The notes below the pieces were generated by a model, which was given only the letters and a program-made list of their open reading frames with translations, had not been told where the DNA came from and searched no databases. A DNA stretch of 41,475 bases from Bryobacterales bacterium (GTDB lineage: Bacteria; Acidobacteriota; Terriglobia; Bryobacterales; Bryobacteraceae), in contig PMEV01000105.1 in assembly GCA_003154855.1 (NCBI GenBank), positions 10,873-52,347 on the forward strand. Direction: 5' to 3'. Below are positions 5,661 through 36,180 of the stretch, one piece after another. Within the stretch, counting starts at the first letter, position 1; the number at the start of each line of letters is the position of its first letter. A program made the translations under genes and the position numbers.

Positions 5661-6311
5661 CTATGACTGCCGAACTCCAAACCGCCGCTTCCTCGACAGC
5701 CACCCAAGTCCAACCAGGGCGCTGCCCAACAACGCGAGCGTGCCCGGCTCCGGAACCACGGCGGCGCCCACGTCCAGATTCCGAATCGTCGGATAACCGG
5801 TGTTGTTCGAAAAGACCTCCAGGTTGGTGAAAGCCTGACCAAAATCCACAAAGCCGACAAAAGGAATCCCCGTCGTGTCGGTGAAAGTCACGAGGGTGAA
5901 ATCGAGACCGTTATCGACCGATACGCCAACCGTGAGCGGGCCGGAGCTGTCGCTGAAGAAATTGCCTCCGACTGCATTCGGCAGGAGCAATCCCGAAAAC
6001 GTCAGCATGAGTACGTCGTTGAAGGCTTCGGTCGAGAGACCCTCGTCGCCGTACAACCCACTGGTGGGGTCGACGGTGGCGGCGCTGTAAGCGAACTGGC
6101 TCCCCGGCGAACCGCAAAACGAAACGTTATTCCCCAATGGCCCTTCAGGCAGCGTAGTGAAATCCTGCGCGCAATCGCCGGGCATCACTTGGGACGCGAA
6201 CGCTGCCGGATCGAAGTACACGGAAATTCCCGCTCGAGCCGTGGTCGGGATCGAGAAGGCGATGAAGCACGCCACCAAAAGAGCCAAAACCGCACTGCGT
6301 CTACGGGTCAT
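5661..6311 (-). CDS. PEP-CTERM sorting-domain protein
   Basis: The C-terminus VPEPGTLALLGSALVGLGWLSRKRR is a PEP motif, a TM helix and a basic cluster. I moved the start to the internal ATG at 6311 (MTRRRSAVLALLVACFIAFSIPTTARA, a signal peptide), which has GGAGG 8 nt upstream. The ORF track extends to 6482. Confidence 0.8.
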   Translation of the reverse strand: MTRRRSAVLALLVACFIAFSIPTTARAGISVYFDPAAFASQVMPGDCAQDFTTLPEGPLGNNVSFCGSPGSQFAYSAATVDPTSGLYGDEGLSTEAFNDVLMLTFSGLLLPNAVGGNFFSDSSGPLTVGVSVDNGLDFTLVTFTDTTGIPFVGFVDFGQAFTNLEVFSNNTGYPTIRNLDVGAAVVPEPGTLALLGSALVGLGWLSRKRRFGVRQS

Positions 6312-6460
6312 CTTGATATCCTCCAGTATTCCTAAGTATCTCTTAATCGGTCCTTGCCACGGCCCCACTCTGTCCTTCGCGGGAGACGCCGACCGGGCTG
6401 GCTCTCCCAACGCGCACACCTCCTCAGGCGTGCCACAATACCGCATTCGATTGTGAAGCA

Positions 6461-6489
6461 ACTTTAACACAGTCGTCGGCACCCGTCAA
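6461..6489 (-). promoter_or_regulatory. Sigma70-like promoter candidate for the PEP-CTERM gene
   Basis: Minus strand reads TTGACG (6489-6484), a 17-nt spacer, then TAAAGT (6466-6461). This implies a leader of about 140 nt. Sequence match only. Confidence 0.25.
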
Positions 6490-6493
6490 TACC

Positions 6494-7384
6494 CTATCTG
6501 GCGTTCGATGCGACCTCGGCCTGCGGCTTCGAGAACCGCGCCTCGTCCAGCTTGGGATTGACCACCACCTTGTTGATGATGGCTCTTTCCATGGGAACGG
6601 GAGGGTCCTTGAGCCCCAGAGCCGTCGTGCCGACGGAGAGAACTTTGGTCTCCAGAAGGTATGGAATTTGCAGGCCGGCTACCGTGCGGAAATCGCGGAA
6701 GTAGACTTCCACGGGATGGTCGACACCATCCAGGCGCCGAGGCTGCCCCTCGATCTTGGTCTCCAGGAAAGTCTGCGCGTCGATCCAGACGTGAATCGCC
6801 TGCCCGCTCTTCATCGTCAGTTTGAGCTTATAGGCATCGCGATCCTCGACCTTCTCCGTCCCCGCCAGCTCGATCCGTGTGCCCTTGGCTGCATAATCGA
6901 CCAGGGGGCCATCCAGGTCCGCCTGAGTGGAGGCAATCCGCAGCTCCTCCGCGGTATAGGGCTCGACGACGCGCCGATTGAGGAACGGCCTCAGCTTCCA
7001 GCCGCTCGAGCCGTCGTACACCTGAATCGCGGTCTGGCCTGCGAATTCCAGTTCCATACGCATCTTGCGAGGGCGCATCAGCTCCATCGCAAAAGGCAGT
7101 TGAACCTCCTCTGCCGGACGCGCAGGGAGCGCGAGTTGGCCAAGCTTCCGGCCACCCGGAACAGGCACCGGGAGGGCAGCCCGCTGATTCCCGCCTGCTC
7201 CCAGCTTGCCCGAAAACGACATGCTCTGGACCGCACGCCAGGCCTGCAAGCCGCCGCGGGCCTCTATGTTGCGGTTCACAATATCGGCCGCGGAGAGGCC
7301 TGGCCCGGACGAGGGGGCCTCCGCCGCGCCGAGGGAGATGGCAAATGCCAGAAGAGAGCAACTACCCAGTGACCATCGATTCAT
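6494..7384 (-). CDS. Secreted hypothetical protein, possibly LolA-like / outer-membrane lipoprotein-sorting fold
   Basis: Signal peptide MNRWSLGSCSLLAFAISLGAAEA. The N-terminal ADIVNRNIEARGGLQAWRAVQSMSFSGKL resembles LolA-like sorting-family proteins (weak call). Start set at ATG 7384, with GGAGGA 7 nt upstream. The track start at 7399 is a TTG. Confidence 0.6.
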   Translation of the reverse strand: MNRWSLGSCSLLAFAISLGAAEAPSSGPGLSAADIVNRNIEARGGLQAWRAVQSMSFSGKLGAGGNQRAALPVPVPGGRKLGQLALPARPAEEVQLPFAMELMRPRKMRMELEFAGQTAIQVYDGSSGWKLRPFLNRRVVEPYTAEELRIASTQADLDGPLVDYAAKGTRIELAGTEKVEDRDAYKLKLTMKSGQAIHVWIDAQTFLETKIEGQPRRLDGVDHPVEVYFRDFRTVAGLQIPYLLETKVLSVGTTALGLKDPPVPMERAIINKVVVNPKLDEARFSKPQAEVASNAR

Positions 7385-7430
7385 GTGTGCGTCCTCCAAG
7401 ACGGATTTTGGTGCCGGCAGAAGGCCAGCG

Positions 7431-7934
7431 TTAATCTACCGCGAGCCCTTCTGCCCGGAAATTCCCAATCACTATGTCCACGCGGTGTCCGGGTCTCACC
7501 ATCCTGCCTCTGTTCGAGAAACCCATCCAATAGGATTTGCCCGCCTCGGGCGTGGAACTCTGTCGCAACAGGCCGATCTTGTCCATCGACGGGACCACCA
7601 GCCTGACGCCGGCCTGCGGGTCAATCAGGAACGGCTCCAGTTTCTTGTCGCTCAGCGGCTTGGCCTTCTCGGGGTCCAGCACGCGATAGCTAAAACGAAC
7701 GATCTCGCCGGACTCGGTGTACTTCACGCCGAGAGAATCGATTCCCCAGACGGCTCCGTAGTACAGAGCGGCGCGCCTGGGGACCCGGTCTGCGTTGAAA
7801 CGGGGAGCGGCGGCCGGCGCCGAAGCCTGTCCCGCCGGGCTGGCGGATTGGGCTCCTACAGAGACCGGAATGCCGCTGGCGACGATCCCTGCCAGCAGCA
7901 TCAGCTTCGCGCCCGGAACCTTATGCTCGAACAT
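7431..7934 (-). CDS. Small secreted hypothetical protein
   Basis: 167 aa with an N-terminal hydrophobic signal (KLMLLAGIVASGIPVSVGAQS). Coding-like composition, same strand, 81 nt downstream of the giant gene. I recognise no family. Confidence 0.55.
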   Translation of the reverse strand: MFEHKVPGAKLMLLAGIVASGIPVSVGAQSASPAGQASAPAAAPRFNADRVPRRAALYYGAVWGIDSLGVKYTESGEIVRFSYRVLDPEKAKPLSDKKLEPFLIDPQAGVRLVVPSMDKIGLLRQSSTPEAGKSYWMGFSNRGRMVRPGHRVDIVIGNFRAEGLAVD

Positions 7935-8015: not shown

Positions 8016-11000
8016 CTAGTTGCCGGTACCCGTCAGAGCCACCGGCGAATTGATGACCGTCACGGGGTTCGTCCCGCTCAGGGCGCTGATGGTCACGGTG
8101 CCACGGTACGACGTAACCGCGGCCGGAGTGAACACCACGTTGATAGTACAACTGGCCCCGCCGGCCAGATCGAGACCGCAAGTGCCCGGCGAGGTGGTGG
8201 ACCGCGTGAACACCGCTGGCGTGAAGGCCAGGGCGATGCTGCTCGCCGTCGCGGTTCCCGTATTGCGAAGGGTCAGGGTGAGCGGCGCGCTGGTCGTGCC
8301 GTGCGTCACCGTTCCAAAGGCCAGTGAAGTGGGCGTCACCGTCAAGGTCACGGGCAGAGCCGTGTTGTGCTCGATCGCGCCGACGTCGATCCTGCTATCC
8401 GCATCCGGCCTCGGGTTGCCGAAGAAGTCGGTCGGCGGAGCCGCTTGGCCGGCCACGGAACTGGTCGGGATGTAATCGATGGCCGGAGAACCGGTCGCCA
8501 GGGCGTAGTTGCCTAGCACCAGGCCGGTTACCGGATGAGCCTGCGACAGCGGCCCGAAGGTGACGTTGATCCAGTTGTTGCCCTCGTCCACGGTGGCCGA
8601 CGGCAGCAGGCTGAAGATCGGATTGGGAACGGTGGCGTCCGAGATGCCCGGTGGCACGTCGTAGCCCGCGGCGCCAAAGCATCCATCCGCCGCGGTGCAT
8701 TCCGGCGGGATCCGCGCTCCGTTGCAGTACTGAGCGACAACGGTCGGGTTGGATGCCAGGTTATTCAAACCGGTGTAACCGGTGATGTCCGTGATCACCG
8801 AGTACGTCGGCGCCAGAGTGAACTTGGAAGAATGGTTGCGCGGCCCGGTATCGCCGCGCACGCCGAGGTCCCAGTAGGACGCGCCGGGAGCGCAGGCCCC
8901 CGTGCCACCGGTGATGATGGTGCCACCGCCGTTGTTAGAGATGGAGTCGGTCCGCGGCTGGCTCAGCGTCGGATACATCGTGATGATGTTCTGCTGGTAC
9001 TGGTTGCTCAGCGAGCCCACACCGACGAAGAACGAGCGGTTCTGCCAGAGCAGGTCGTTATACAGCTCCGGATAGGAGACTAGGGTGCAAGTCGGCGCCG
9101 AAGCCGAGCCCACCTTGCCCGTTTGCGGTGTGCCAGGAGCGTAATGGCCGGTCGGGCAGGTGATGGTCAGCCCCGTGAGGCTCAAAGCCAGCACCGGGCT
9201 GTTGCCGGATACCGCCAAGCCGCCAGGCTGAGGCAGCGATGTGCTGCCGGTCGGCCCAGTGGTTCCAGGGGGCGGCGGCCCACTGGCCAGAGGCGCCCCG
9301 AGGGTGGTAGTGAGAACCCCCGCGGTAGCCGTGGAGTCGTTGGAGACCACGGTGTTGTTCACGAAGTTCACCGCCAGGGCATCCTGGAAGGAGACGCCAC
9401 CGCCGTCCCAGCCGGCAACGTTGTCGACAATGACATTGTTGATCACCGCCACGCTGTACCAGCGATCGGGACGTGAGGGGAACGTGGAAATATCTGTCCC
9501 GTTCACGCCCTGGAAGCGGAGGCCGCCGCCAGCGCCGCTTTCCGCCATGTTGCCCTGAATCAGGTTGGCGTTGATTACCAGGCCGGGCCCGGTTCCGTCG
9601 CTCATTCCGGGCGGGCAATCCTGGTCGGGCTGGGTGCCGCACACAGGATCTGTGTCGGGAGTCCCCTGAATGATCATGCCGCCGCCGTTGGTCGGGATGG
9701 TCGGATTGGTGCTCTGGTTGAACAGGATGGCGTTGTGCTCGATGTCGCCGTTCCAGTTCATCCCCAGGTGAGCGAATCCGCCGCCGTCGCCGGCGCTCAG
9801 GTTTCCGCACACCCAGTTGTAGTTGAACTTATAGTAGTCGGCGCCCGTGCAGAAACTGACGCCGCCCGCTCCAGCCGGGGTAGCCGAGAACAACTCGTCG
9901 CCGATGGAGCTGTTCAGCGTGACCGAATTGTGGTGCACGTTGACGTTCAGGTCGAAGCAGTACGGCAACTCCAGGCCCGTGTACGTCTGACCGGTGTAGC
10001 AGGAAGGTGGATCGTATGCGGTGCCGCCCACGATGTTGGCGGGCGCAAACTCACCCTGGCCGACGTTGATTCCGCCCGAGAGCGTTCCGGTATTGCTGTG
10101 TATCCGGTTGTTCGCGATCTCGAGGTAATGCCCGTAGGCATGCACGAAAACTCCGCCGCCGCCCTGCGAGCTGTCGGTGACGCTCAGCCCATCGATCCGC
10201 GACGGATTGCACAGGAAGTTGCTGGGATACGGATTGGCGCCACTTGGGCCGCTGGTGCAGTCGGCTGCCGTCAGCAGCACGGTGCCGGGCGGGAAGGTGT
10301 CGCTTCCGAAAGGATTGGATCCGGTCGGGAACTTTACGCCTTTCCCGAGAACCGTGATTCCGGCTCCTTCGTAAGCGCCCATCAGCGTCGGCTCCTGCAA
10401 CTGCTCGGCCAGGTTTCCGTTGAGTGTGGCGTCCCAGCCGACCACTGCCTCCAAGGGCAGCCGGTCGACCGAGAACTGCTGCGCCGCCGGGCAAATCCAT
10501 GGTCCGCCGTTATTGCCTTTGTCGGAGGGCGGATCGTACGGATTCCCCGCGCTGATGGGCCGGCCATTGATGGCGATTCCGAACAGGCAATCCACCTGGC
10601 GCCGCCAGGGATCCAGCCTGCCCGCGGGTTGCGTGTTGGCGTTGATGATGCTGGAGGCCGCGCCGACACCTTGCAGCCGCACCGGCTTCCACATGAGCAC
10701 GAACTCGGTGTAGACGCCGGGCGGAACGATGATCAGGTCGCCCGGCTGCGCCGCGTCGATGGCCGACTGAATCGTGGCTCCAGCAGCCATCGGAATCGGA
10801 GTTTTGCCGCCTATGGTGACCGTCACCGCGTCGACCGATTGTCTGCCGTTGTCGGCCGTGATGATCAGTTCGCCGCAGCGTTCGGCCGGCACGGAGCCGC
10901 CATTCGGCCCGCCGTATAGGGCCTGTTGCTGGATCGCGCACAGCGGCACATTCGGGGGAACCGTTACCTGGATCTGAGTGCCGCTCCAACTGGTAACGGT

Positions 11001-14000
11001 CGCCTTCACGCCGCCGATGGTCACTCCGCCCACGCCCTGAGTAGCCCCAAAGCCGTAATGACGCGTGATCTTCTTCTGATTGAAAGGAGGCGCCGTGGCC
11101 GAGGGGCCGGAGTACGCATAGTTGTTCACCTGCTGGTCGGGAAGAGAATTGATCGTGAGGGTGTGGCCGGCCGCCAAGACCCAAGGCCCAGCCACGTCGC
11201 CGGTCACCGTAGAGACCGCTGGCGTCGTGTCGGGGTACTCGCAGTCGGGATGGTTGTACCCTTCCGAGAAGCCCGCGGTGGGAACCACCGGGGTGTCCAG
11301 GTAGTCGGTCTGCCCCGGCATGAACGGCAGCTCGTAGCAGAACTGGCTGTAGCCCGATTGGTACAGCGGGTCCGGAGTGGGTCCCGATCCAGGGTCGTTC
11401 ATGCACATGACCATCATGGTGGGTGAATAGCCCGTCGGATTGGGCGGGTTCACTTCCCAGGTCGAGTAATTCAGACCATTGTAGAGGCCCCACTGGTCCG
11501 CATACACCCGTGAGATTTCGTTCCCGGCCCAGTCCCTGACGGATACCGGCAAGTTGGGCGGCGAGAATTTCTCGCCGAACTGCGGCGAGAACGGATCGAA
11601 TTCGGAGGTGAAGTCGTCCGTGATCACCCCGGTGAACTTGGCGGCGATGTGGGTCGAAGTGTAGATGTAGAATTTCGCCGTCGCCGCCATCTGGTCCGTC
11701 AAGACCACTTCCTTGCGGTCGCACAGATTGCGCGTCGCTCCGGCGAAGGGCGACACCTCCTTGGACTGCGGGAAGAGGCTGATGAAGTCGGGCACCACGC
11801 GCGCCTGTCCCACGCACGCCCAGACGGGCTCGAAGGGGAATCCGGGAACCGTATCGGTATGCGGGCCGGTCCCCAGGTTGGTCGTGGGATTGTTTGGGTT
11901 ATTCGCGTTGTAGGCGCTGCCGATCGCGGCCTGGTCGGGAATGATGAAGATGGAGGCCATGGTGGCGAACTCCTGGGTCACCGGCGCGATGAAGCTGTCG
12001 CCGATCAGGATGTTCTTATCCTCTTCCTTCACCAGTTCGAAGCCCGGAGGCACCACCACTTCCACCACGTACTTGCCCGCCGGAAGCATCGGAGTGCCAA
12101 ACCTGAGGGTATCCGACGCGTCGGGATTCGTCTTGCAGACCGCGCAGTTCGTGGTGAGGGGCTTTCCCGTGGTTGTGCTTGTCGAAGTCACGCTCGGGAA
12201 CGAGTACATGCCGTCGTAAGGCGCCGGCTGGAGCTGATTCCAGTTGTGCATGCCGTCATAGCACTTGAACTGAGAGTTGTATGGCAACGCAGTCCCTGGA
12301 TTGAGCCAGTTCACCTGGTTGTACAACGTGAAGTAGAAGAGATCCCCCGTCGACTGGCCCGGGCAGTTCATGTTCGGAACGCTGTCCGAACGGAAACCCT
12401 GCGACCAATCGTCCCAACTGCTGGTCTGGGTGGTGTCCACCAGCGTGAGAGATTGGGTCCCGTCGGGCGCCGTCCCTTCCTGGTAGAGGTTGATGGTGAC
12501 GTGTGGAACCAGAGGCTCCCATTGGGTCTGAACCAGCAATATCGGGTCGTCGAAAGGACGGGTCGAGGCATAGATCACATGTCCCCTGATCCCGCCGTTT
12601 TCACCGGGAGCGAAGGGCGCCTTGCCGAATTCGATAAAGTTGTTCTGGCCGGTGAAGCCCTGCCAGCCCTCGGCCGGGGTCCAAGGCGTATCGATCCGGC
12701 CCGTCGACAGCGTGGTCGAGCAGGTAGTAATGCCCGAGGACGTCGTACAGTTGCTGGGCGGATCGCTGCTGCCGGCCCCACTCTGAATCGATTTGCCCGC
12801 GCAGTCCGCGCCCTTGCAGTACACCGCACCCGGCACCCGCAGGTTCGTGGGCGACGTGGGCAGGGAGACCAGCTCGAGCGTGTTCGCCAGGTTCTTGCCA
12901 ATGGTGGAAGTCCCGCACGGCGGGTAGCCCGGCACACCGCAGGACGCCGAGCCGTCGACAGGTCCGCCGGTGTCGTACACCGTGTGGATACCCGTGGTCT
13001 TGTAACGGGTGGTGTCCGCTTCCACGACGTACCAGTTGAACAGCGGGAACGTCTCGTTGAAATTGGCCACGCCGTTGAAATCCGTGGTGAGGTTGTTGGA
13101 CAAGCTGCCGTCCCGGTACCGAATGGTGGTCGGAATCAGCGGGATCCCCGCTTCGCCTTTATCGTAGACGCCGTTCTTGTTATCGTCGATGAAAGTCCGG
13201 GTGTAGAGATTGGCCTGCCATTGCGTGACCGGAACGTCCTTCATATTGGTCAGGGTGCCGCCCCCCAGGGTAAGGGGCACCGAAAGGCCGTCCACGATCT
13301 GATCGTTCCACTGATCGAAGAGGGTGACCCTCCAATCGCCGGCGGGAAGACCGGTCAGGGTGAAGTTCCCGTCTATGTCGCACTTGGTGAAGGCGAAATC
13401 CTCGCCGTCCGGATCTCCCAAGCTGACGTAGCACTGCGTCCAACCAAACGTATCGCGGGTGCCAGTGCTGTAGAGCCGCTCATCCGGCGTCCGGCTCAGG
13501 TGCAGGCCTGTTACCTTGCCCGTCACCGAGTTGTTGCAGGGGCCCAGCGGGCCGAGGTCGGCCCCGGAGCAGACGGCCGCCAAGCGATTATTGATGATCT
13601 TCGGGTTGGCAAATCCAATGGATACGTGGTATCCGGCCGGCCCGAACTCCTGGAAGTAGCTCGGCTCGCCGATCCGGATGAACGCATCGTGGGCCTTCTG
13701 GCCGTCCAGCGTGTTGGTTTGGAGCCACTCTTCGCCCCTCGCAATCCGGTCGGCGCCCGGCGTGGCCACCACGCTGAATCTTCCCGGCATCAGGTTGGCA
13801 ATCAGGGCCTGGCCCGCCAGCGGGGATAGAGTCGCTCCGTCGGATTCGTACTTCGGGCAGGTAACGATCTGGCCTGTGATGCCCGCTTGAGCCGTATTGC
13901 CGGTAGCCTGGGTTGAAATCGGGCACGCATCCAACCCGGTCACTGGATCGATCGTTCCCGCCAGGCTGTTCGACAGCGGCATGTTGAACATGTCGTAAGT

Positions 14001-16547
14001 CATCTGTCCGGTGAAGTCGCCAGAACCGCCCATGGCGTCGAAGATCTCGAGGTTAAAGCCCCCCAATCCGGGCTCGTTGGGCGAGAGGATGTCGACTCCG
14101 CCACCCGCATCTTGCTCGCCGTTGAGCGGGAAGTCGTCTTCGAACACGATCACGGATAGTTTCCCCGGCGGGAGCGGCGTGGGTTCCACCAGGACCGTGA
14201 TACTGGTCACCAAACGCGTCAAGGTAGTCGGATCGATGGGGATCGGAGCGCCGCCCATGGTGTGGCCTGGCCCGGCCCCATTGAACGGGTTGGCTGCGTC
14301 GCCGGGCAGGACCGAGATGTAGTAGCGCTTGGCTGGGTCCAGAGAGACCTTGCTCGGATCCACGGCCGTCTGTTGGGTGGCCGTCGTCCGGCACACACCG
14401 TTGCCCACGTCGCACACCGCGGGTACGCCCAGGACACTCTGACCCGATTCGCAGGACAGCGGTCCCGTGCATCCCTGCGCCACAAATGCTGTCGAGCTGG
14501 TGTGGAAATTGACCCCATAGGTCGGAACGATCGGGCCAGTCGGGCCGGTGTTAACCGTCTTGGTCGGATTGACGAAGAAGGTCCGATCTTCTTCGATAAC
14601 CCAGCGATAGTCCGTGAGAACGCCTCCCGTCGAGGGATCCTTGACCGTCACCGTAATCGGGCTCACCGGCGTGGGGAAGTTTATCGTCACGGTCGCCGCG
14701 GCGCTGAGCGTTCCCTGCGAGTTCTGCGCCTTGTACTGGAAGGTGTAGGTGCCCGGCCCGGGAACAGAGGCGTTGAAGCCGCCGTTGGCAGCCATGACCA
14801 CCGTCAGTCCGCCTGCCGGCGACACACTGGCCACGTTCACTGTGAGCGGATAGCCCGCGAGGTCCTTGTCCACGGCCAGGGGGCCGGGTGTCTTGATGGC
14901 CAGGGAGGTGGCCACTGTCGAATTGTAGGTGATCGGATTCACGACGATGCCGCCCGTGGCCTCCACCGGCGCCAGAGTCAGCGTCACCTTAGCGGTGGGA
15001 CCCGTGCCATTGGCCTGGTAGAAGAAGCTATCCGGGGCGGTCCAGCCGGCGTTGGGCACATACGTAAAGGTGCCGTTGGCGAAGAGAGTCAGCACGCCTT
15101 TGGTTGGCGCGGTGGCAACCTTAACGCCGTAGACGTTGATGTCGTTGGCGATCACGCCCTTGCTGGGATCCGATACGGTGAGCGTCTCGCCCGGCACCAC
15201 GGTGTAAGCATCCGGGTTGGCCTGCGCGGGCGTCAGGGCGGGGGCATTCGGGATCGCCGAGCCGTTGATGCCGACGTAGGCTAGCATTCCGGCGTCGCGT
15301 ACCACCGCGTTGCCCGACAGGCTCAACTCGCGGTCGTATATCGGAAGGGCAGTCGCCGGCGGCGCGGAGGTGGCGGGAGCGTTGACCATCACATCGTAGG
15401 TCTTGCCCGCGGCCATGAAGACTTCGTTCTGCACGCGGCCCACGCCCGGCAGCACGTTGCCGTCTTCCGCAATCAGCGACATGCCGGCAACCGCCGGTGT
15501 CCCGGTCAGCGATCCGATGATCGAGGGCACGTGCATGCGCAAGCCCGCGTTGACCAGGCGCACCAGGACCAGCCCGGTGCCAGGGGTAACGGCCCGCGAA
15601 ATCGGGAACAGAGATGCCGGGGAGTTGGTTTTGTTGAAGGCGACCCCGTTGATCATGTAATACAGCGGGATGTAGTTCACCGCGGGCGGATAGCACGTGT
15701 GATAATTGGCCGAAGCGGGATTGCCGCATTGGTTCGGCTGGCCGGACCACACCGCGGTCTCGGTGAACCCCACCGTGCCGACCGCGGTGGTGACGGCGTT
15801 GTTCTGAACCGGGTCGATTTCACTGAACAGCAGCGGGACGTCCGCATTATAGGTTACGCCGGGGTAGGCAAGGCCAACGACGCCTGCCGACGGCGCGGTG
15901 GTAACCACCAGTATCCCGTACAGGCCCATGGGGCCCTGAATGGACGGGTGCGTGCCCGACTCAAACAGGTAGGTGCCCGGCCGGAGCCCCGACCAGGTCA
16001 GCGGCTTCATCGCTCCCGGCAGCACTTCCGTGGCGAACGACTGCACGCGCGGCCCCTGCAGCGGGGGCGTGCCGGAGGGACCGGAGTTCGCGATGGGCCA
16101 CGTGGTCGCCGCCTGGGCATTGGAGTGGTCCGGCGAAGGCGTGGTGGTCCTCTGCGCCAGCACTCCCAGACCGCCTCCCAACTGGCCCACGATCACCAGC
16201 GAGGTGGGCACCCCGTTCTTCCCGGCGCCAGCCGTGAACGAAAGATTATTGGTGAGGTTGACTCGCAGGCCTCCCGCGGCCGTGGTGGGAATCGTGATCA
16301 CCACCGGGGACCAGCCCGTACCCGCGCCCGTGTTCAACTTGGCGCAAGTCGCCGACGATCCCGGGACGACCGTGCCGCAACTGTAGCCCCACATCGGCAC
16401 TTGCGAGCCGTCCGGCAGGGTGACGGTGGCCGGTGCGGCAGTCAGATTGATCTGCTGCTGGCCGTAGGCCGCAACCGCCCCGGAGAAAAGAACACCCCCT
16501 AAGCATACCGCCACCTTCAAGATGGCTTTAAAGTCGTTGATTCGCAT
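8016..16547 (-). CDS. Giant (2843 aa) secreted multidomain protein. N-terminal copper-ligand-free MCO-like module, then cadherin/Ig-like, SdrD-B/Cna-B-like and IPT/TIG modules, a right-handed beta-helix and a C-terminal choice-of-anchor-D-like domain
   Basis: Uninterrupted ORF with signal peptide ..AVAAYGQ. aa 30-430 are paralogous to the upstream MCO-B. aa ~445-625: VIANDINVYG...GTFTYVPNAGWTAPDSFFY. aa ~1040-1190: CDIDGNFTLTGLPAGDWRV and FIDDNKNGVYDKGEAGIP. aa ~1826-1915: GVTIGGVKATVTSWSGTQIQVTVP. aa ~1920-2700: AQPGDLIIVPPGVYTE, NNRIHSNTG, HHNSVTLNSS, DVGAIE. aa ~2730-2843: LTVTPTSLAFGTVTHGTTSAPLTLTLRNTG. GGAG lies 9 nt upstream of the ATG. Confidence 0.9.
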   Translation of the reverse strand: MRINDFKAILKVAVCLGGVLFSGAVAAYGQQQINLTAAPATVTLPDGSQVPMWGYSCGTVVPGSSATCAKLNTGAGTGWSPVVITIPTTAAGGLRVNLTNNLSFTAGAGKNGVPTSLVIVGQLGGGLGVLAQRTTTPSPDHSNAQAATTWPIANSGPSGTPPLQGPRVQSFATEVLPGAMKPLTWSGLRPGTYLFESGTHPSIQGPMGLYGILVVTTAPSAGVVGLAYPGVTYNADVPLLFSEIDPVQNNAVTTAVGTVGFTETAVWSGQPNQCGNPASANYHTCYPPAVNYIPLYYMINGVAFNKTNSPASLFPISRAVTPGTGLVLVRLVNAGLRMHVPSIIGSLTGTPAVAGMSLIAEDGNVLPGVGRVQNEVFMAAGKTYDVMVNAPATSAPPATALPIYDRELSLSGNAVVRDAGMLAYVGINGSAIPNAPALTPAQANPDAYTVVPGETLTVSDPSKGVIANDINVYGVKVATAPTKGVLTLFANGTFTYVPNAGWTAPDSFFYQANGTGPTAKVTLTLAPVEATGGIVVNPITYNSTVATSLAIKTPGPLAVDKDLAGYPLTVNVASVSPAGGLTVVMAANGGFNASVPGPGTYTFQYKAQNSQGTLSAAATVTINFPTPVSPITVTVKDPSTGGVLTDYRWVIEEDRTFFVNPTKTVNTGPTGPIVPTYGVNFHTSSTAFVAQGCTGPLSCESGQSVLGVPAVCDVGNGVCRTTATQQTAVDPSKVSLDPAKRYYISVLPGDAANPFNGAGPGHTMGGAPIPIDPTTLTRLVTSITVLVEPTPLPPGKLSVIVFEDDFPLNGEQDAGGGVDILSPNEPGLGGFNLEIFDAMGGSGDFTGQMTYDMFNMPLSNSLAGTIDPVTGLDACPISTQATGNTAQAGITGQIVTCPKYESDGATLSPLAGQALIANLMPGRFSVVATPGADRIARGEEWLQTNTLDGQKAHDAFIRIGEPSYFQEFGPAGYHVSIGFANPKIINNRLAAVCSGADLGPLGPCNNSVTGKVTGLHLSRTPDERLYSTGTRDTFGWTQCYVSLGDPDGEDFAFTKCDIDGNFTLTGLPAGDWRVTLFDQWNDQIVDGLSVPLTLGGGTLTNMKDVPVTQWQANLYTRTFIDDNKNGVYDKGEAGIPLIPTTIRYRDGSLSNNLTTDFNGVANFNETFPLFNWYVVEADTTRYKTTGIHTVYDTGGPVDGSASCGVPGYPPCGTSTIGKNLANTLELVSLPTSPTNLRVPGAVYCKGADCAGKSIQSGAGSSDPPSNCTTSSGITTCSTTLSTGRIDTPWTPAEGWQGFTGQNNFIEFGKAPFAPGENGGIRGHVIYASTRPFDDPILLVQTQWEPLVPHVTINLYQEGTAPDGTQSLTLVDTTQTSSWDDWSQGFRSDSVPNMNCPGQSTGDLFYFTLYNQVNWLNPGTALPYNSQFKCYDGMHNWNQLQPAPYDGMYSFPSVTSTSTTTGKPLTTNCAVCKTNPDASDTLRFGTPMLPAGKYVVEVVVPPGFELVKEEDKNILIGDSFIAPVTQEFATMASIFIIPDQAAIGSAYNANNPNNPTTNLGTGPHTDTVPGFPFEPVWACVGQARVVPDFISLFPQSKEVSPFAGATRNLCDRKEVVLTDQMAATAKFYIYTSTHIAAKFTGVITDDFTSEFDPFSPQFGEKFSPPNLPVSVRDWAGNEISRVYADQWGLYNGLNYSTWEVNPPNPTGYSPTMMVMCMNDPGSGPTPDPLYQSGYSQFCYELPFMPGQTDYLDTPVVPTAGFSEGYNHPDCEYPDTTPAVSTVTGDVAGPWVLAAGHTLTINSLPDQQVNNYAYSGPSATAPPFNQKKITRHYGFGATQGVGGVTIGGVKATVTSWSGTQIQVTVPPNVPLCAIQQQALYGGPNGGSVPAERCGELIITADNGRQSVDAVTVTIGGKTPIPMAAGATIQSAIDAAQPGDLIIVPPGVYTEFVLMWKPVRLQGVGAASSIINANTQPAGRLDPWRRQVDCLFGIAINGRPISAGNPYDPPSDKGNNGGPWICPAAQQFSVDRLPLEAVVGWDATLNGNLAEQLQEPTLMGAYEGAGITVLGKGVKFPTGSNPFGSDTFPPGTVLLTAADCTSGPSGANPYPSNFLCNPSRIDGLSVTDSSQGGGGVFVHAYGHYLEIANNRIHSNTGTLSGGINVGQGEFAPANIVGGTAYDPPSCYTGQTYTGLELPYCFDLNVNVHHNSVTLNSSIGDELFSATPAGAGGVSFCTGADYYKFNYNWVCGNLSAGDGGGFAHLGMNWNGDIEHNAILFNQSTNPTIPTNGGGMIIQGTPDTDPVCGTQPDQDCPPGMSDGTGPGLVINANLIQGNMAESGAGGGLRFQGVNGTDISTFPSRPDRWYSVAVINNVIVDNVAGWDGGGVSFQDALAVNFVNNTVVSNDSTATAGVLTTTLGAPLASGPPPPGTTGPTGSTSLPQPGGLAVSGNSPVLALSLTGLTITCPTGHYAPGTPQTGKVGSASAPTCTLVSYPELYNDLLWQNRSFFVGVGSLSNQYQQNIITMYPTLSQPRTDSISNNGGGTIITGGTGACAPGASYWDLGVRGDTGPRNHSSKFTLAPTYSVITDITGYTGLNNLASNPTVVAQYCNGARIPPECTAADGCFGAAGYDVPPGISDATVPNPIFSLLPSATVDEGNNWINVTFGPLSQAHPVTGLVLGNYALATGSPAIDYIPTSSVAGQAAPPTDFFGNPRPDADSRIDVGAIEHNTALPVTLTVTPTSLAFGTVTHGTTSAPLTLTLRNTGTATASSIALAFTPAVFTRSTTSPGTCGLDLAGGASCTINVVFTPAAVTSYRGTVTISALSGTNPVTVINSPVALTGTGN

Positions 16548-16575: not shown

Positions 16576-18171
16576 TCACATGGACTCGTCGATCAGGAAT
16601 TCCCGGGAATCGACCAGCATCATCATCAGCATTCCACCGGGAAAGACGTTGTTGGTAGTGATTTCGCGCTCGTTGTGCGAGTGCCACATATACGCATAGC
16701 CCCGCTCGTTTGCGGGGTTGGCCTGCGAGTTCGAAGGTTGAAAGACGCTCAGCGGCCCTGTCGCGCGCACCGTCGCATCCGGACCCAGATAGGGACTGCC
16801 GTTGTACCAGGGGCCGTTCGTGAAAATGTTCGCATCGGGCAAAGTGATCGGGCCGCCGCTCTCGACATCCCCGAAGGGAGAGGCTTGGATCGGCTTGTTG
16901 TGGTCCTGGCACCACTCGAAATAGTTGATCGCGCTCACCGGCGCCGGCGGCGAGCTATTCACCGTGTAGTAGCCGTTGGTGTCCGGAACGCAGGCGACGT
17001 TGGCGAGCGGGTCGCTGGATGTGGGATTGTGACCGTACATATCCCAGTTCAGGCCCTTGCCGGTGACGTAGAAGAGACCGTCGAAGGCTTGGCCCGGAGT
17101 CGTGTCGGTAGTGAACATCAAAAGCCCGGCGAGAAGGGTCGGATCGCTCTGGCTGAGGAGCAGGTTCGCGTCGCGCGCCAGAATGCGCACATGGTTGGCG
17201 TGCTCGTGGAACGGATGCTGCCACCGGCCTTGGCCGATGACCCGTATCAGCGTGATTTCACCTGGATGCATGTGCGGATTGCCGTTGTAGGGCTGGTGCG
17301 GATACTCGGCCCCATAGTTGGCATCCATCAGGTCCGGCATCGCACGTCCATTAATCAGGTAGTACGCGGGATGGTACGGCTCGGTCGGGACTTCCAGACT
17401 GCAGCCCTGCGCCCCGGCCGTGCAACCTAGCGTCGCAGCGACCTGCAGCCGCGCCTGATTGTGGATGACCGGATCCATCTCGGCGAACTGGAACAGGTAT
17501 TCACGGTCGTAGCAGGTCTTGGCGTGGTCGTAAGCGGCCTGCGACAGCCGGAAGTCCTTTTCGCCATGGGCCGCCTCCACCTGCGTGTTCGCGAGAGGCA
17601 ACCCGCTGGTGCAGGCGGTGGGAACGCTGCTCGGGAGCACAATGATCGCGCCATAGAGGCCCATTTCGACCTGCAGGTCGCCTTGCGTTCCGCTGTAATA
17701 GGAGCGGGTCCCCGGCGAGGAGGCGGTGAAGGAATAGGTCACCGTCCCTCCAGGCGCAGCCTCCTGCGTCAGCAGCCCGATTACACCGCCCGTCGTGGTC
17801 ACCTTAAAGCCAGGAAACAAAATCGACGTGTTGCCGGCCGAAGTGGGGAGATTGTTGGTCAACTGCACTGTGACCGTTTGTCCCTCCGTCACGATCAGCG
17901 TGGGTCCGGGAACTTGCATGGTCGGGCAGGTCGCGGTAGTAATCGCCGAGGGGGCAAAGCCGCTCGGCGTGCCGTTGCAGCCGTAGCCCCACGAGTAGAT
18001 CGCCGACCCGTCCGGCGTGTTCAGGTAAGCGGTTTGCGCCGTCAGCTTGAAGTTCGGCCCGGTGATGCCGGGAGCCGCCGCGAAAGCCGTCGCCGCCAAC
18101 AGCATCAGTGCCGCCGCCGCCGGGATCGGCCGCCAATTCGAGATCGCTTTAGTCATGTTCGTCGCCCTCAT
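16576..18171 (-). CDS. Multicopper-oxidase-family protein B (two cupredoxin domains). HxxHxH and HSH motifs occur only in the C-terminal domain, and there is no T1 cysteine
   Basis: Signal peptide ..LLAATAFAAAPG. WQHPFHEHANH (H319/H322/H324, nt 17200-17217) and YMWHSHNERE...GGM (H497-S-H499, nt 16675-16683). The N-terminal domain has ILFPGF and SYYSGTQ where HxHG and WYHSH would be. GGAGAG lies 5 nt upstream of the ATG, which is 10 nt after the upstream stop. Confidence 0.85.
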   Translation of the reverse strand: MRATNMTKAISNWRPIPAAAALMLLAATAFAAAPGITGPNFKLTAQTAYLNTPDGSAIYSWGYGCNGTPSGFAPSAITTATCPTMQVPGPTLIVTEGQTVTVQLTNNLPTSAGNTSILFPGFKVTTTGGVIGLLTQEAAPGGTVTYSFTASSPGTRSYYSGTQGDLQVEMGLYGAIIVLPSSVPTACTSGLPLANTQVEAAHGEKDFRLSQAAYDHAKTCYDREYLFQFAEMDPVIHNQARLQVAATLGCTAGAQGCSLEVPTEPYHPAYYLINGRAMPDLMDANYGAEYPHQPYNGNPHMHPGEITLIRVIGQGRWQHPFHEHANHVRILARDANLLLSQSDPTLLAGLLMFTTDTTPGQAFDGLFYVTGKGLNWDMYGHNPTSSDPLANVACVPDTNGYYTVNSSPPAPVSAINYFEWCQDHNKPIQASPFGDVESGGPITLPDANIFTNGPWYNGSPYLGPDATVRATGPLSVFQPSNSQANPANERGYAYMWHSHNEREITTNNVFPGGMLMMMLVDSREFLIDESM

Positions 18172-18181
18172 TGCCGCTCTC

Positions 18182-19798
18182 CTAGTTGATATGCACCTCG
18201 GTCATCAACCCGCCGAAGTTCTCTGCATCGTTGGACAGGTGGTCAAGATTGGGGGTGTAGAGGTAGAACACGCTGCCCGAGGGATACAACGTTGTGTTGC
18301 TGGCATCCAAAATCACGTCCAGCGACTCGCCGCCAGCCAGCGTGATCGAGTTGGTGTTGTAAGCCATGTTGATCCCGGCTTGGTCCCGCAGCAGCTTCGC
18401 GTTGTAGCCGACGACCTTCATCGGAATCCCCAGCGAGGCCAGCGTCTGGTATTCCATCACGTCCAGGTCGGAAATGCGCAGCAGCGCTTTTCCGCCGGCC
18501 GGAATGTTGATGATCGAATCCATCGGCTGCGAGAAATGCCTGTTGGAGTCGGCCGACTCCGTCTGCATCGCGCCGGCCGTCACCGTGTCCGGGTAGCTCC
18601 GCCCGTTCAGCAGGAAGTACTTGTCCTTCATGTCCACAAAGCCTTCCGGGTTGAACGTCATGCCGACGAAGTGGAAATTGGGGTCGAAACCGTGAATCTG
18701 AAGGGGATACTCCACGTCGTAGGCCGTCGAGCCGTCGCCGTCGTTGTAGGCGTACTTGTAGGGCTGGCCCGTCCTCGGGTCGATGCTCTGGTTGACGCTG
18801 TTGGAGGGCGGAAGCGGATTGCTGCACAGCACGTCGGTTGCGGAATTGCAGGCCGTGCGCAGATCGTTCTGTTGCAGCGCCAGGGCGGCCCGGAGGCCGT
18901 TGCCGACCTTGACCCGATTCTGCCGGGGGCGTACATAGAGCTGCCCCACCATGCCCATCTGCAAGTGCTCGGGAGGCGTGATATGGCAGTGCCAGAAGTA
19001 GGTGCCGGCATCGGGCGACAAGTAATAATAAGTGAAGCTGCCCCCGATGTTGATGGCCACCGAGGCGTCCGGTACGCCGTCGTAGAAAGGCGCGGCATTG
19101 GGATAGCCGTGGAAGTGCACCGTGTGCTGTTCGAAGAGGTCCGGGCGCATGATCATGCCCACGTTGGTGAGCGTGAGGAAGAACTCGTCGTCCTCGTCGA
19201 ACGCCATCAAGGGCGCCGGGATGTTGCCGTTCATCACTCCCACGTCCATGATCGGCCGCGGATCCACGTGCCCATCCAGGGGTGCGCCAGCGGTTCCCGA
19301 CCCGTTGTTCGCATCCAGATCGGGCATCAGCCCCACCGCCCCGTTATAGGTGAACGAGCCCGCGCCGAACTTGTTGACCGTGGTGGCGGGATCGCCGGGC
19401 TGCAGCGGGATCGCACCCGGATACACGGTATTGAAGACGTTCGGGAACTCCGTGCCCGGCAAGCCCCTGGACATGTCGTAGAGCCCGGATAACGGTCCGA
19501 AGGAGAACATGAATGTCTGCGTCCCGTCGGCCATCGTCGAGTAACCGTCGCCGCCCGAGATCTGCTGGCACTTGATAGCGCCGTTGACGTTCGACGTCGG
19601 CGTCAGATATCCTTTGGCCCCTACCGTCCAGCCGGTCGGGCCCACGTAGTTGGGTTCTGAATTGTTGTTCGCCGCCACCGGGTGAGTGATGGTGCTGGTT
19701 GGACACTGCACTCTAAACGACTGAGCGGTCGCCGTCAGTGCCGCAACACAGATCAGCGCCACCAGGACCCACGAAATACCCAATCTTCTCGTTCCCAC
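18182..19798 (-). CDS. Multicopper-oxidase-family protein A (two cupredoxin domains). T1 site plus half of the trinuclear-cluster ligands in the N-terminal domain; possible Tat signal
   Basis: GTG start with GGAGGAGG 5 nt upstream. N-terminus MGTRRLGISWVLVALICVAALTATAQS contains a twin arginine. EQHTVHFHG (nt 19109-19126) and FWHCHITPPEHLQMGM (nt 18950-18991). The C-terminal domain motifs are degenerate (YPLQIHG, YLYTPNLDH). Confidence 0.85.
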   Translation of the reverse strand: MGTRRLGISWVLVALICVAALTATAQSFRVQCPTSTITHPVAANNNSEPNYVGPTGWTVGAKGYLTPTSNVNGAIKCQQISGGDGYSTMADGTQTFMFSFGPLSGLYDMSRGLPGTEFPNVFNTVYPGAIPLQPGDPATTVNKFGAGSFTYNGAVGLMPDLDANNGSGTAGAPLDGHVDPRPIMDVGVMNGNIPAPLMAFDEDDEFFLTLTNVGMIMRPDLFEQHTVHFHGYPNAAPFYDGVPDASVAINIGGSFTYYYLSPDAGTYFWHCHITPPEHLQMGMVGQLYVRPRQNRVKVGNGLRAALALQQNDLRTACNSATDVLCSNPLPPSNSVNQSIDPRTGQPYKYAYNDGDGSTAYDVEYPLQIHGFDPNFHFVGMTFNPEGFVDMKDKYFLLNGRSYPDTVTAGAMQTESADSNRHFSQPMDSIINIPAGGKALLRISDLDVMEYQTLASLGIPMKVVGYNAKLLRDQAGINMAYNTNSITLAGGESLDVILDASNTTLYPSGSVFYLYTPNLDHLSNDAENFGGLMTEVHIN

Positions 19799-20176: not shown

Positions 20177-20725
20177 CTAGATCGCGGTGGGGTTCTTCCC
20201 AAGTTTGCGTTGCAGCGAGCGGCGGTGCAGGCCGAGCAGCCTGGCCGCCTGGGAGACGTTGCCGCCGCAGTCGGCCATCACGCGTTGGATGTGCTCCCAC
20301 TCCACTCGAGCCAGGCTGGGCACGGTGGAGGGCGGAGGCGCGCTGGCCATGGCGGGATCGCGGGCCACTTCATACGCGGCCAGAATCTGGTCCACGTCGA
20401 CCGGTTTGCTCAGGTATCGGTCCGCTCCCAGGCGCCCGGCCTCCAGGGCTGTGGCCACACTGCCATAGCCGGTGAGCATGACGATGGTCATCGTCGGATC
20501 GGACTCGCGCAAGCTGGGAATGAGACTGAGTCCGGACTCGTTGGCCAGACGCAGATCGACCACCGCCAGGTCCGGCGCCATCTCCCGGGCCATGGCCAGA
20601 GCCGAGCCGATATCCGCGGCGCCTTGCGCCTCCCATCCGCGCAGGCCGAAGGAGCGGCACAATCGTGCGCGGTACACCTCATCGTCGTCCACTACCAGCG
20701 CCGCCGGTTTCTCTTTCTCGGTCAT
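20177..20725 (-). CDS. regA: RegA/PrrA/ActR-type response regulator (REC plus Fis-type HTH)
   Basis: Start moved to the internal ATG at 20725 (MTEKEKPAALVVDDD..), which overlaps the kinase stop as ATGA. REC motifs DLAVVDLRL and YLSKP. C-terminal HTH GNVSQAARLLGLHRRSLQRKL is typical of RegA/ActR. Confidence 0.85.
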   Translation of the reverse strand: MTEKEKPAALVVDDDEVYRARLCRSFGLRGWEAQGAADIGSALAMAREMAPDLAVVDLRLANESGLSLIPSLRESDPTMTIVMLTGYGSVATALEAGRLGADRYLSKPVDVDQILAAYEVARDPAMASAPPPSTVPSLARVEWEHIQRVMADCGGNVSQAARLLGLHRRSLQRKLGKNPTAI

Positions 20726-22020
20726 GGCAGCTCCAGTGGCACCTCGAGCACCGCCAGCGTGCCCGCGCCCGCCTCGGATTCCAGTTGCAGACTGCCGTTG
20801 AGAGTGGCGGCGAAGGCGCTGGCCAGGTAGGAGCCCAGGCCCATGCCGCGCCCCGCGGACTTGGTGCTGAAGAACGGTTCTCCCACACGTTTGAGCGTCT
20901 CGGGAGGCATTCCGCTGCCGAAGTCGCGGACCGAGAAACGCAGCTTGCCGCCCGCGCATTCCGCCGAGAGCTGGACATTCTGGCCGCCGCTGGTGGCATC
21001 CAGGGCGTTTCTTACGAGTGCGGCCAGCGCCTGGCGGGTTGCTTCGGCCGGCAACACCGCCCGCGCATCGGCCGGAACGCTGGTGGCGATTTGGCGCTGT
21101 TCCGCCGGCGCAAAACTCCGCCGGACCTTTTCCAGCAACTCGGCCAGGGCGATGGGCGCGGGGGTCTCGCCGGCCGATTCCGCTCCCTGGGCGCTCATCT
21201 GGCGCAGGATTCCACTGCAGCGATCGACCTCCGCGCGGATCAGACGCGCTTCTCCGGCCACCGCCTCGTCCGGCGCCCCCAGTTCGAGATCGCGCGAGGC
21301 GATGGCGATGGTGGCCAGCGGCGTCCCCAGTTCGTGGGCCGCGCCTGCCGCCAGAGTGACGATCGAGGCCAGCCTCTCATGCCGCGCCAGTTCGTCGCGC
21401 AGCGAAAGGACCTGCTGCTCGCGGTGCCGCAGGGCCTCCGAGACCTTGCCGATGAAGATGGTAATCAGCAGGGCGGCGGCAATGAAGGCAATCCACATCC
21501 CCACCAGGTGAGCGGCGAATCCCTCCTGTGGGTGGTGGCCTTCGAAGACCGGCACGCGCACATGCATCCAGAACAAAAAGCCGAAACCAGCCACCGACAG
21601 GCAGCCCAGTCCCCACGTCCATTGCTTGTTCAGCACCACCGCGGAGAGCGCGATCTGGACCAGATACAGCAAGCTGAAAGGATTCGCCGGTCCTCCGGAG
21701 AGCGCCAGCAGCGCCGTGAGCGCGACCGTGTCGAGAGTCAGCAGCCAGCCCAGCGCGGGCCGCGCGCCGAGCCAGGCGGCAAAGCGGTAAAGCAAAAGGT
21801 TGCTGGCCGCCGTTACAGCCAGGGGGATCGCCAACCAGCCCAGCGGAAGCTGGACATGGAAGACGAAGTACGCCAGCAGGATCAGCGCGGCCTGCCCGCC
21901 CATCGCGCCGTAGCGCAGCCGCGCGATCCAGGGTAGAGCCAGGCTGGGAGCGAGTTCCCCGGCCGGTCGCAGATCGAAATCCGATGGACCGCGACGCCCT
22001 GTCACCGACACCCGCACCAT
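20722..22020 (-). CDS. regB: RegB/PrrB/ActS-type redox-sensing histidine kinase
   Basis: Polytopic N-terminus containing GGPANPF (nt 21676-21696), which fits the GGxxNPF quinone-site heptapeptide. H-box AAGAAHELGTPLATI (His229). Redox-box-like EVDRCSGILRQM (Cys268, nt 21217-21219). G-box GRGMGLG. Confidence 0.85.
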   Translation of the reverse strand: MVRVSVTGRRGPSDFDLRPAGELAPSLALPWIARLRYGAMGGQAALILLAYFVFHVQLPLGWLAIPLAVTAASNLLLYRFAAWLGARPALGWLLTLDTVALTALLALSGGPANPFSLLYLVQIALSAVVLNKQWTWGLGCLSVAGFGFLFWMHVRVPVFEGHHPQEGFAAHLVGMWIAFIAAALLITIFIGKVSEALRHREQQVLSLRDELARHERLASIVTLAAGAAHELGTPLATIAIASRDLELGAPDEAVAGEARLIRAEVDRCSGILRQMSAQGAESAGETPAPIALAELLEKVRRSFAPAEQRQIATSVPADARAVLPAEATRQALAALVRNALDATSGGQNVQLSAECAGGKLRFSVRDFGSGMPPETLKRVGEPFFSTKSAGRGMGLGSYLASAFAATLNGSLQLESEAGAGTLAVLEVPLELP

Positions 22021-35636: not shown

Positions 35637-35834
35637 TGCTCCCATTTTATCCCGCTGAGCCTGCAAGGCATTCTGGATTCCCCTCCCTTCCCACATCTTT
35701 TCTCCCGCCCCCACAACGCCTTAGCCTCAGCGTCCCCCCTCCTGCCGCTCGGCCCGTGTTTAGCTGGAGTTAGCAAGGTGCGCCCCATGGCTCCCATAGC
35801 GCGACACGAACGCCCAGCCAAAACCCAAAAAGAA

Positions 35835-35968: not shown

Positions 35969-36017
35969 GAGCAACCGGTTGAAGGTAAACACTATCCCAT
36001 CCAGCATCCCCTCTCCG

Positions 36018-36072: not shown

Positions 36073-36180
36073 AACGCAACCCGCCGCCATTTCGCCCACT
36101 TCCCGACCCCTCCCATTCCAGCCCCTACCCTGTTATCAACTATTTACACCCGTTTCCCCCGTGGCAGCCGAAATGCTCTA

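Follow-up and report, generated by a model that had tools for sequence, protein, structure and literature searches.

Can the active site of one multicopper oxidase (MCO) be divided between two gene products? Textbook MCOs are single polypeptides or assemblies of identical subunits, which supply all copper ligands themselves. The question is raised by three tandem genes for secreted proteins, here called A, B and G, in 41,475 nucleotides (nt) of a Bryobacterales bacterium (GCA_003154855.1, PMEV01000105.1 positions 10,873 to 52,347); this whole stretch is called the window in the following. An earlier note, made from the sequence alone, had suggested that A and B each carry a complementary half of the ligand set. 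In our analysis, A carries the motifs of a type 1 (T1) copper site and of one half of a trinuclear cluster, B carries those of the other half, and the first part of G, called GN, carries none. The best explanation of the sequences is that A, B and GN are three ancient paralogues of a type C two-domain MCO (2dMCO) among which the copper ligands were divided. The features concerned are the following.

18182-19798, minus strand: protein A, 538 amino acids (aa), a secreted two-domain cupredoxin protein with a GTG start; Pfam Cu-oxidase_3 at residues 186-293
19109-19126, minus strand: H225-TV-H228-F-H230 of A, aligned to HTIHWH of 3g5w
18950-18991, minus strand: H270-C271-H272-ITPPE-H278-LQMG-M283 of A, aligned to HCHVNVNEHVTMrGM of 3g5w
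16576-18171, minus strand: protein B, 531 aa, a secreted two-domain cupredoxin protein; Pfam Cu-oxidase_3 at residues 86-181
17200-17217, minus strand: H319-PF-H322-E-H324 of B, aligned to HAIHTH (3g5w) and HAMHSH (2zwn), both of domain 2, and to HPFHLH of Fet3p domain 3
16675-16683, minus strand: H497-S498-H499 of B, the predicted second HxH of domain 2; MWHSH aligned to MIHDH (3g5w) and FIFHDH (2zwn), both of domain 2
8016-16547, minus strand: protein G, 2843 aa, a giant secreted scaffold (Pfam and NCBIfam)
15258-16547, minus strand: GN, the N-terminal ~430 aa of G, a third module of two cupredoxin domains (hhalign to the B family)

The three genes are co-directional, with gaps of 10 nt between A and B and 28 nt between B and G, and GGAG precedes the start in each gap. 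Thus the open reading frame (ORF) positions, the spacing and the separate Shine-Dalgarno sequences described in the earlier note were correct, and codon arithmetic on the ORFs reproduced its motif residues and nucleotide coordinates exactly. The Cu-oxidase_3 matches score above the Pfam cut-off (A 53.1 bits, B 59.7 bits); outside them the MCO signals in the window are weak.

Distribution of the predicted copper ligands

The best matches of A in the PDB are two type C 2dMCOs, 3g5w from Nitrosomonas europaea and the metagenomic mgLAC, 2zwn. Both resemble A in having the T1 site in domain 1, with HCH-x5-H spacing and the combination HxxHxH plus HCH, and the motifs align. Residues 188-293 of A align with domain 1 of 3g5w with an E-value of 2.4e-13 for the single sequence and 1.9e-23 for the family profile. 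In this alignment HTVHFHG falls on HTIHWHG, and HCHITPPEHLQMGM falls on HCHVNVNEHVTMrGM. The predicted T1 ligands of A are H225, C271, H278 and M283, and the predicted cluster ligands are H228, H230, H270 and H272, all of them in domain 1. The HCH-x5-H spacing, which had been regarded as unusual, is indeed present; since the motif of A aligns on that of 3g5w, which has the same x5, it is simply the type C spacing.

Domain 2 of A has no cluster ligands. In the profile alignments the ligand columns are occupied by Q451...L456 and by Y514-T-P516. Q451-TLASL456 is the stretch homologous to the HxxHxH motif of domain 2, and the C-terminus of the A family (FLYTTNL) aligns with WMIHDHV of 3g5w, which places Y514-T-P516 in the last HxH column. 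Thus YPLQIHG is not the domain-2 relic for which it had been taken, although the domain is ligand-free all the same; H520 lies outside the ligand columns. The ligand-column alignment to 3g5w therefore bears out a complete T1 set and two HxH pairs in domain 1 of A and none in domain 2. In an alignment of the A family down to 37% identity, the only invariant His and Cys are the domain-1 ligands and H376.

Protein B shows the reverse arrangement. Its domain 1 aligns with the same domain of 3gdc, 3g5w and others, and ILFPGF and YYSGTQ replace the ligand motifs there. Domain 2 supplies the predicted cluster ligands H322, H324, H497 and H499, whereas H319 and M514 fall in vestigial T1 columns, H319 in that of the T1 His. 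Like domain 2 of type C enzymes, it combines HxxHxH with an HxH whose middle residue is not Cys. As for A, 3g5w and 2zwn are the structures that B resembles most in sequence. The alignments of both domains thus agree with two HxH pairs in domain 2 of B and none in domain 1. Ser498 does stand between H497 and H499, as had been noticed, but it need not be a recently lost T1 Cys, since domain 2 of type C enzymes carries HDH, with Asp at this place.

Several residues of B outside the cluster are also conserved in the orthologues of the window type, namely H237, H300, H302, H327, H381, H424, E501 and E503, together with a Met-rich C-terminus (GGMLMMM). Even B-like proteins of 34-39% identity keep H302, H424, E501, E503 and M514 without exception and H237 and H381 almost without exception. 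A second metal site or a substrate site in domain 2 of B is possible.

Profile-profile comparison by hhalign relates the three modules to each other. The A and B families align over both domains (probability 99.8%, E 5e-30). H225/H228/H230 of A stand opposite T115/L118/P120 of B, H270-C271-H272 of A opposite Y159-S160-G161 of B, and H319/H322/H324 of B opposite Q451/A454/L456 of A. The B and GN families align with probability 100% and E 1e-39, and H322/H324 of B stand opposite S342/I344 of GN. GN has neither HxH pairs nor a Cys ligand, which confirms that the N-terminus of G is a ligand-free paralogue; a T1 Cys is absent from both B and GN. Hence the ligands of A and B exclude each other column by column, and GN has none. 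No single chain of the three has eight His in four HxH pairs; this set is complete only for A plus B. Neither in A nor in B do both domains of one chain supply cluster ligands, as they do in type C enzymes. A and B share 24% identity over 173 aa. With so low an identity the duplication must be ancient and cannot be the recent tandem event that the earlier note had implied.

Behind its ligand-free cupredoxin module, G consists of Big_9/cadherin-like domains, SdrD_B, a NosD-like beta-helix and choice-of-anchor Q and D domains, in this order (Pfam, NCBIfam). Free-standing homologues of GN score 23-33 bits and reach the Pfam cut-off for Cu-oxidase_3. H141 of G lies in an insert of GN that is lineage-specific. 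A second site made of the half-relics H369 and H520 of A and H141 of G was considered and rejected: these residues are outside the ligand columns and unconserved in the wider family. The linker between the domains contains a DPxxH motif, which is invariant in A (FDPNFH, with H376) and conserved in B (MDPVIH, with H237). It reads IDPxLH in the GN-like proteins of the fused-type loci L081-L085 described below, and its His is replaced by Gln in the G head of the window type.

Conservation of the divided ligand set

Is this division a peculiarity of one contig? A genome scan with one genome per species gave 80 loci, and a separate scan of metagenome contigs that started from B added another 80; gene order was counted as far as the contig or flank of each locus reaches. 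The genome loci belong to Acidobacteriota, Burkholderia, Paraburkholderia, Pandoraea, Collimonas, Trinickia and Ralstonia, and also to Gallionellaceae, Steroidobacteraceae, Dongiaceae and one Verrucomicrobiae metagenome-assembled genome (MAG). The order A, B, G-head, G-body was found in 80 of 80 genome loci. In the metagenome loci with enough flank, an A-like gene lies directly upstream of B in 74 of 74, and a GN-like gene lies downstream of B in 67 of 67. The order A-B-G thus holds in all ~160 loci with enough flank, in several phyla. Several MAGs of Acidobacteriota carry two to four complete A-B-G operons on separate contigs (L009/L002, L011/L012/L024/L025 and L010/L056), which means that A-B-G was repeatedly duplicated as a whole set.

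The ligand pattern hardly varies among the orthologues, which come from Acidobacteriota, Burkholderiales, Gallionellaceae, Steroidobacteraceae and others. The pattern HHHHCHHM of A is identical in 65 of 66 full-length orthologues, the exception being H230N in the locus L006, and the residues of the H270...M283 motif are invariant in all 66. The pattern HHHHSH of B is found in 71 of 73 orthologues; one of the two exceptions has H324Q (again L006), the other is gapped at 497-499. Taken singly, H319 and H322 never vary (73/73), 72 of 73 sequences have His at position 324, and H497-S498-H499 is kept in 72 of 73. Among the metagenome loci, 79 of 80 have HPFHEH plus HSH of B.

Relatives of A and B at 72-84% identity number in the thousands, one of them annotated from Sideroxydans sp. 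CL21, and homologues abound in Acidobacteriota of soil and peat, in Burkholderia and Paraburkholderia and in iron oxidisers. A search with A against 1.84 billion cluster representatives found 369 clusters at E < 1e-30. None of the motif-bearing representatives of at least 400 aa has a full ligand set; each has one HxxHxH and one HCH. Down to ~38% identity, the representatives of the A family have nothing beyond the two domain-1 pairs at ligand positions. Homologues of A with a full set, which the earlier note had named among the findings that would speak against it, were therefore not encountered at close or moderate distance.

The exceptions in A and in B deserve a closer look. The sole ligand substitution in A, H230N (HTVHFNG), and the sole one in B, H324Q (HPFHEQ), are found in the same operon, L006 (MAG contig CAVPBL010000012.1; A-like gene 10001-11731, B-like gene 11793-13457), the surroundings of which are otherwise typical. 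From the ligand assignment of CueO, we take H230 of A and H324 of B both to be type 3 (T3) positions, related by the pseudo-twofold axis. If A and B share one site, ligand changes of A and B are expected in one locus, and this is what L006 has. L006 could have a variant site with two amide ligands, be a decaying copy or contain an assembly error.

A second architecture places the giant body elsewhere. Many members of the A family form the C-terminal ~350 aa of proteins of 1000-2800 aa, whose bodies are homologous to the middle and end of G (SdrD_B, beta-helix, Big_9). The source names of these A-fused proteins (P0259-P0478) include Methyloprofundus sedimenti and MAGs labelled Deferrisomatales, Thermodesulfobacteriota, Verrucomicrobia and Bathyarchaeia. 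Five loci of this kind (L081-L085) show the order giant with C-terminal A module, B-like gene, GN-like gene and small ORF. The A modules of this type have HFH plus HCH only. In the B-like proteins, which share 34-39% identity with B, domain 2 has HP[FL]H[HT]H plus HSH (HSH in all five) and domain 1 has nothing, and the GN-like proteins (28-31% identical) have no HxH in their cupredoxin part. The complementary pattern is thus conserved even in a sister architecture at 34-48% identity, and since these loci keep the same half-site split, the set of three modules and the partition of the ligands must predate the split of the architectures.

The giant body is continuous with the G module in operons of the window type and with the A module in the other type. 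By the Rosetta-stone argument, this alternate fusion indicates that the A, B and G modules belong to one complex. Subtilisin-like proteases follow just after the MCO genes in L081 (19779-21650) and L083 (20654-23683); one of them has a MopE-type copper-binding domain, the other has Big_9/cadherin repeats, and they may process or anchor the complex.

A probable heteromeric oxidase and its alternatives

Two-domain MCOs are trimers in which the trinuclear cluster lies at the interface of two monomers (PMC3192119; PMC11761707 for 9cck). As the cluster is located between domains 1 and 2 of neighbouring subunits, only an interface of domain 1 of A with domain 2 of B can bind a complete cluster, and the ligand distribution permits exactly one trinuclear site per A-B-G set. 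Since A and B each carry half of the site, the enzyme probably works only as a mixed complex. Judging from the sequences, we consider a trinuclear cluster shared by A and B to be likely, and an obligate heteromeric oxidase A:B(:G) to be likewise probable. Those checks proposed in the earlier note that could be carried out by computation all spoke for its interpretation, apart from the small corrections given above. For a three-membered ring that includes G, the balance is about even.

The following mechanism can be envisaged. The substrate would be oxidised at the T1 copper of A, the electrons would pass via His270-Cys271-His272 of A to the shared cluster, and O2 would be reduced to water there. 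The G module would probably close a pseudo-threefold ring in the order B, A, G, with one active and two silent interfaces, and the resulting unfused six-domain oxidase with its one active site would be tethered to an extracellular scaffold of ~2400 aa. The proteins would leave the cytoplasm by the Sec route, be loaded with copper in the periplasm and then, in many lineages, probably be exported by a dedicated type II system. The earlier note had read TRRLGIS of A as a twin-arginine (Tat) signal. However, the arginine pair is kept in only one of 11 aligned homologues, the others having a single R or K; with the pair unconserved, Sec export of A is likelier than Tat export.

In its widest form, our proposal describes a naturally unfused six-domain MCO that is widespread. 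A, B and the G head would form a pseudo-symmetric heterotrimer with one T1 site and one trinuclear cluster from two gene products, carried on a ~2800-aa extracellular scaffold. This complex would be exported folded by a dedicated type II secretion system (T2SS) in many lineages. Its substrate would lie outside the cell and might be a solid, for instance mineral Fe(II), and O2 would be the acceptor. The complex would be a subfunctionalised intermediate, still living, between homotrimeric two-domain and single-chain six-domain oxidases. Taken as a whole, this picture has in our view an even chance of being right. Candidate substrates are Fe(II), be it solid or dissolved, Mn(II) and phenolics, with mineral or dissolved Fe(II) as the best lead.

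Several points weigh against a heteromeric oxidase of this kind. Domain 2 of B matches solved structures over short stretches and with low scores (10.9 and 1.0 bits); these alignments rest on collinearity and motif identity, and the matches recur in three structures. The AlphaFold2 monomer models were unusable, with a mean pLDDT (predicted local distance difference test) of 34.9 for A and 32.2 for B, because the alignments held only 12 close sequences. With a concatenated A+B+GN query no natural fusion of A with B was found, nor one of B with G; the query instead returned giants with a C-terminal A module. The pair of substitutions in L006 is a single event, for which chance coincidence is ~1 in 70 and assembly errors are possible. 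The stoichiometry and the participation of G are inferred only from the conserved triad. Finally, the identity of A-B-G with the cluster Slit_1816-1818 of S. lithotrophicus ES-1, discussed below, is judged by description and taxa, not by sequence.

The alternative that survives best retains the shared cluster of A and B but completes the ring with a second A or B (e. g. A-B-B), with G as a scaffold or adhesin that binds elsewhere or is separate. No computed result puts GN in the ring, GN is without any ligands, and its insert bearing H141 is lineage-specific. Yet a ligand-free third two-domain module is kept in every locus of both architectures, be it free-standing or fused. It is difficult to see why this cupredoxin pair should have been retained in more than 100 loci from several phyla if it did not take the place of a subunit, and the giant body has GN as its fusion partner in one architecture and A in the other. 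Hence we regard a ring without G, of the kind just described, as unlikely.

Another possibility is that A and B form separate homo-oligomers with non-canonical copper sites and no shared cluster. A would then be a T1 electron-transfer protein with a partly liganded interfacial copper, and B would serve in copper binding, storage or as a chaperone. Each of the two proteins has its own signal peptide and Shine-Dalgarno sequence, and the further invariant His and Met of B (H237, H302, H327, H381, H424 and those of the Met-rich C-terminus) might suffice for metal binding by themselves. In a homotrimer of A, however, the domain-1 His would face Q451...L456 and Y514-T-P516, and in a homotrimer of B the domain-2 His would face ILFPGF/YYSGTQ. 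Homo-oligomers also leave unexplained why the half-sets are invariant, why A and B co-occur in 100% of cases and why both substitutions are in L006. Separate homo-oligomers are therefore improbable.

A last possibility is that the modules are cupredoxin folds without catalytic function which decorate a giant adhesin, or that only the T1 site of A is used, as an electron relay at the outer surface that sends electrons inward and not to O2. T1 was lost in two of the three modules and everything in one, and in the literature the cluster figures only as a set of cupredoxin proteins without an assigned role, close to a cytochrome and SCO1/SenC. But eight cluster His and a T1-wiring HCH that are invariant over several phyla are the signature of a working oxidase and not of decay, so that both versions are very unlikely.

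Neighbouring genes, known systems and significance

Further genes of the window surround the three cupredoxin genes:

7431-7934, minus strand: protein S, small and secreted, 167 aa, fourth gene of the operon, with homologues in other loci
6494-7399, minus strand: secreted protein of 301 aa with a sub-threshold LolA-like match; a homologue lies near the operon in L050 only
5661-6482, minus strand: PEP-CTERM protein of 273 aa, downstream of the operon
1545-3377, plus strand: secretin of a type II secretion-like apparatus (Pfam Secretin)
20177-22020, minus strand: response regulator (receiver and Fis-type helix-turn-helix, no AAA) and multi-pass histidine kinase, directly upstream of A
35625-40288, plus strand: three genes with 4Fe-4S, CCG and FAD/pyridine-nucleotide-disulfide domains in a heterodisulfide-reductase-like arrangement

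Protein S has no Pfam match. With the ORF that follows G in L086 it shares 51% identity. In each of the five fused-type loci its counterpart is encoded behind the GN-like gene, at 33-44% identity and with the common motif FRYRVLDPxKA...LRQ. A homologue follows G or the GN-like gene in every locus reaching that far. Protein S is probably a fourth component or an assembly factor.

Type II secretion-like genes (ATPase, platform protein, PilN-like protein, secretin, pseudopilins) were found in the flanks of 23 of 86 loci, and secretin homologues within 10 kb of A in 19 of 86. In Pandoraea terrae (L037, 412-9750) a full T2SS gene set lies directly upstream of A and forms a co-directional block with A-B-G, and T2SS-type genes adjoin the operon also in L081 (23006-26084) and L086 (2356-5538). 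This points to an export route reserved for the folded copper complex. In the window the association of the secretin with the operon is loose, and this secretin is a candidate export channel. SCO1/SenC copper chaperone genes occur in nine loci; the window has no adjacent SCO1/SenC or cytochrome gene.

The regulator and kinase upstream of A resemble a redox two-component pair of the RegB/RegA type. Their homologues are not regularly linked to the operon elsewhere (2 and 8 of 80 loci). The upstream two-component, efflux and ABC genes are not conserved with the operon. The three genes at 35625-40288 appear to be unrelated to the copper oxidase.

How does A-B-G compare with characterised enzymes? 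In type C 2dMCOs each chain carries both halves of the site, and three identical chains form a trimer with three active sites (PMC3192119). The A/B system differs from them in that it has at most one site per A:B pair and a third, ligand-free paralogue, and A and B are ~200 aa longer through inserts. The copper nitrite reductase NirK has, like A and B, two cupredoxin domains per chain; it is a trimer with an interfacial copper site from two subunits, as would be the case in the proposed complex, and many NirK structures are among the matches of A and B. However, NirK has a mononuclear type 2 (T2) site with HxxxxH plus HC, whereas A and B together hold the full eight-His pattern of MCOs. An assignment of A as NirK was rejected on its HxxHxH and HCH motifs and on the scores for NCBIfam Cu_nitrite_red, which are 29 bits for A and 41 bits for B against a cut-off of 296.

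In ceruloplasmin and in MnxG of the Bacillus Mnx complex, two-domain units form a pseudo-trimer, and only one of the interfaces between the units houses a trinuclear cluster. The same logic would apply to the proposed A-B-G ring, but those enzymes are single polypeptides, whereas here the six domains are on three chains. Ceruloplasmin keeps three T1 sites; the A-B-G set has one, in A. MnxE and MnxF are small non-MCO subunits, whereas in A-B-G the cluster ligands themselves are split over two gene products. Geobacter sulfurreducens OmpB and OmpC are multicopper proteins which reach the outer surface via an atypical type II system (as cited in PMC5566968). As described there, they share with A-B-G their large extracellular multicopper nature, adhesion-type domains, a dedicated T2SS, a SCO1/SenC gene and an implied role in the redox chemistry of iron minerals. 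Compared by this description only, OmpB differs in being a single-chain MCO for which no split ligand set is reported.

The gene cluster as such has been noticed before. S. lithotrophicus ES-1 has three tandem genes for predicted extracellular MCOs together with a cytochrome and a copper chaperone, which have no homology to OmpB/MofA (He et al. 2017; PMC5566968). The proteins Slit_1816-1818 are co-expressed, and their abundance is higher on magnetite than on Fe(II)-citrate; two of them were described as having the canonical MCO motif and the larger third as lacking it, and similar clusters were reported in Paraburkholderia, Ralstonia, Anaeromyxobacter and Steroidobacteraceae (Keffer et al., bioRxiv 10.1101/2024.09.20.614158). 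Like A-B-G, Slit_1816-1818 are three tandem genes of which the third is much larger, with adhesin- and polysaccharide-lyase-like domains. Paraburkholderia, Ralstonia and Steroidobacteraceae are also among the taxa with A-B-G loci. Slit_1816-1818 are flanked by small hypothetical proteins and by SCO1/SenC, of which the latter has no counterpart next to the operon in the window. Judged by this description, the taxa and the composition of L086, Slit_1816-1818 are very probably the same system as A-B-G. That each protein has only half of the ligand set goes unremarked in these papers. In the literature on heterodimeric, heterotrimeric or otherwise heteromeric MCOs with a split cluster, we found only Mnx, the small subunits of the POXA3 type and Nmar_1354. 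As far as we found, the gene cluster is thus known but uncharacterised, and a split trinuclear cluster in an obligate heteromer is undescribed.

If our interpretation is true, the eight His of the cluster would come obligatorily from two gene products, which would be a new assembly principle for the MCO family. Duplication and complementary loss would have frozen a homotrimer into a heterotrimer, an unfused counterpart to the six-domain oxidases of the ceruloplasmin type, and A or B expressed alone would give inactive protein. Annotation based on motifs miscounts genes of the A/B type as ordinary laccases. As the family is abundant and a published proteome shows the proteins of what appears to be the same cluster at higher abundance on magnetite, the A-B-G architecture bears on the oxidation of solid minerals outside the cell.

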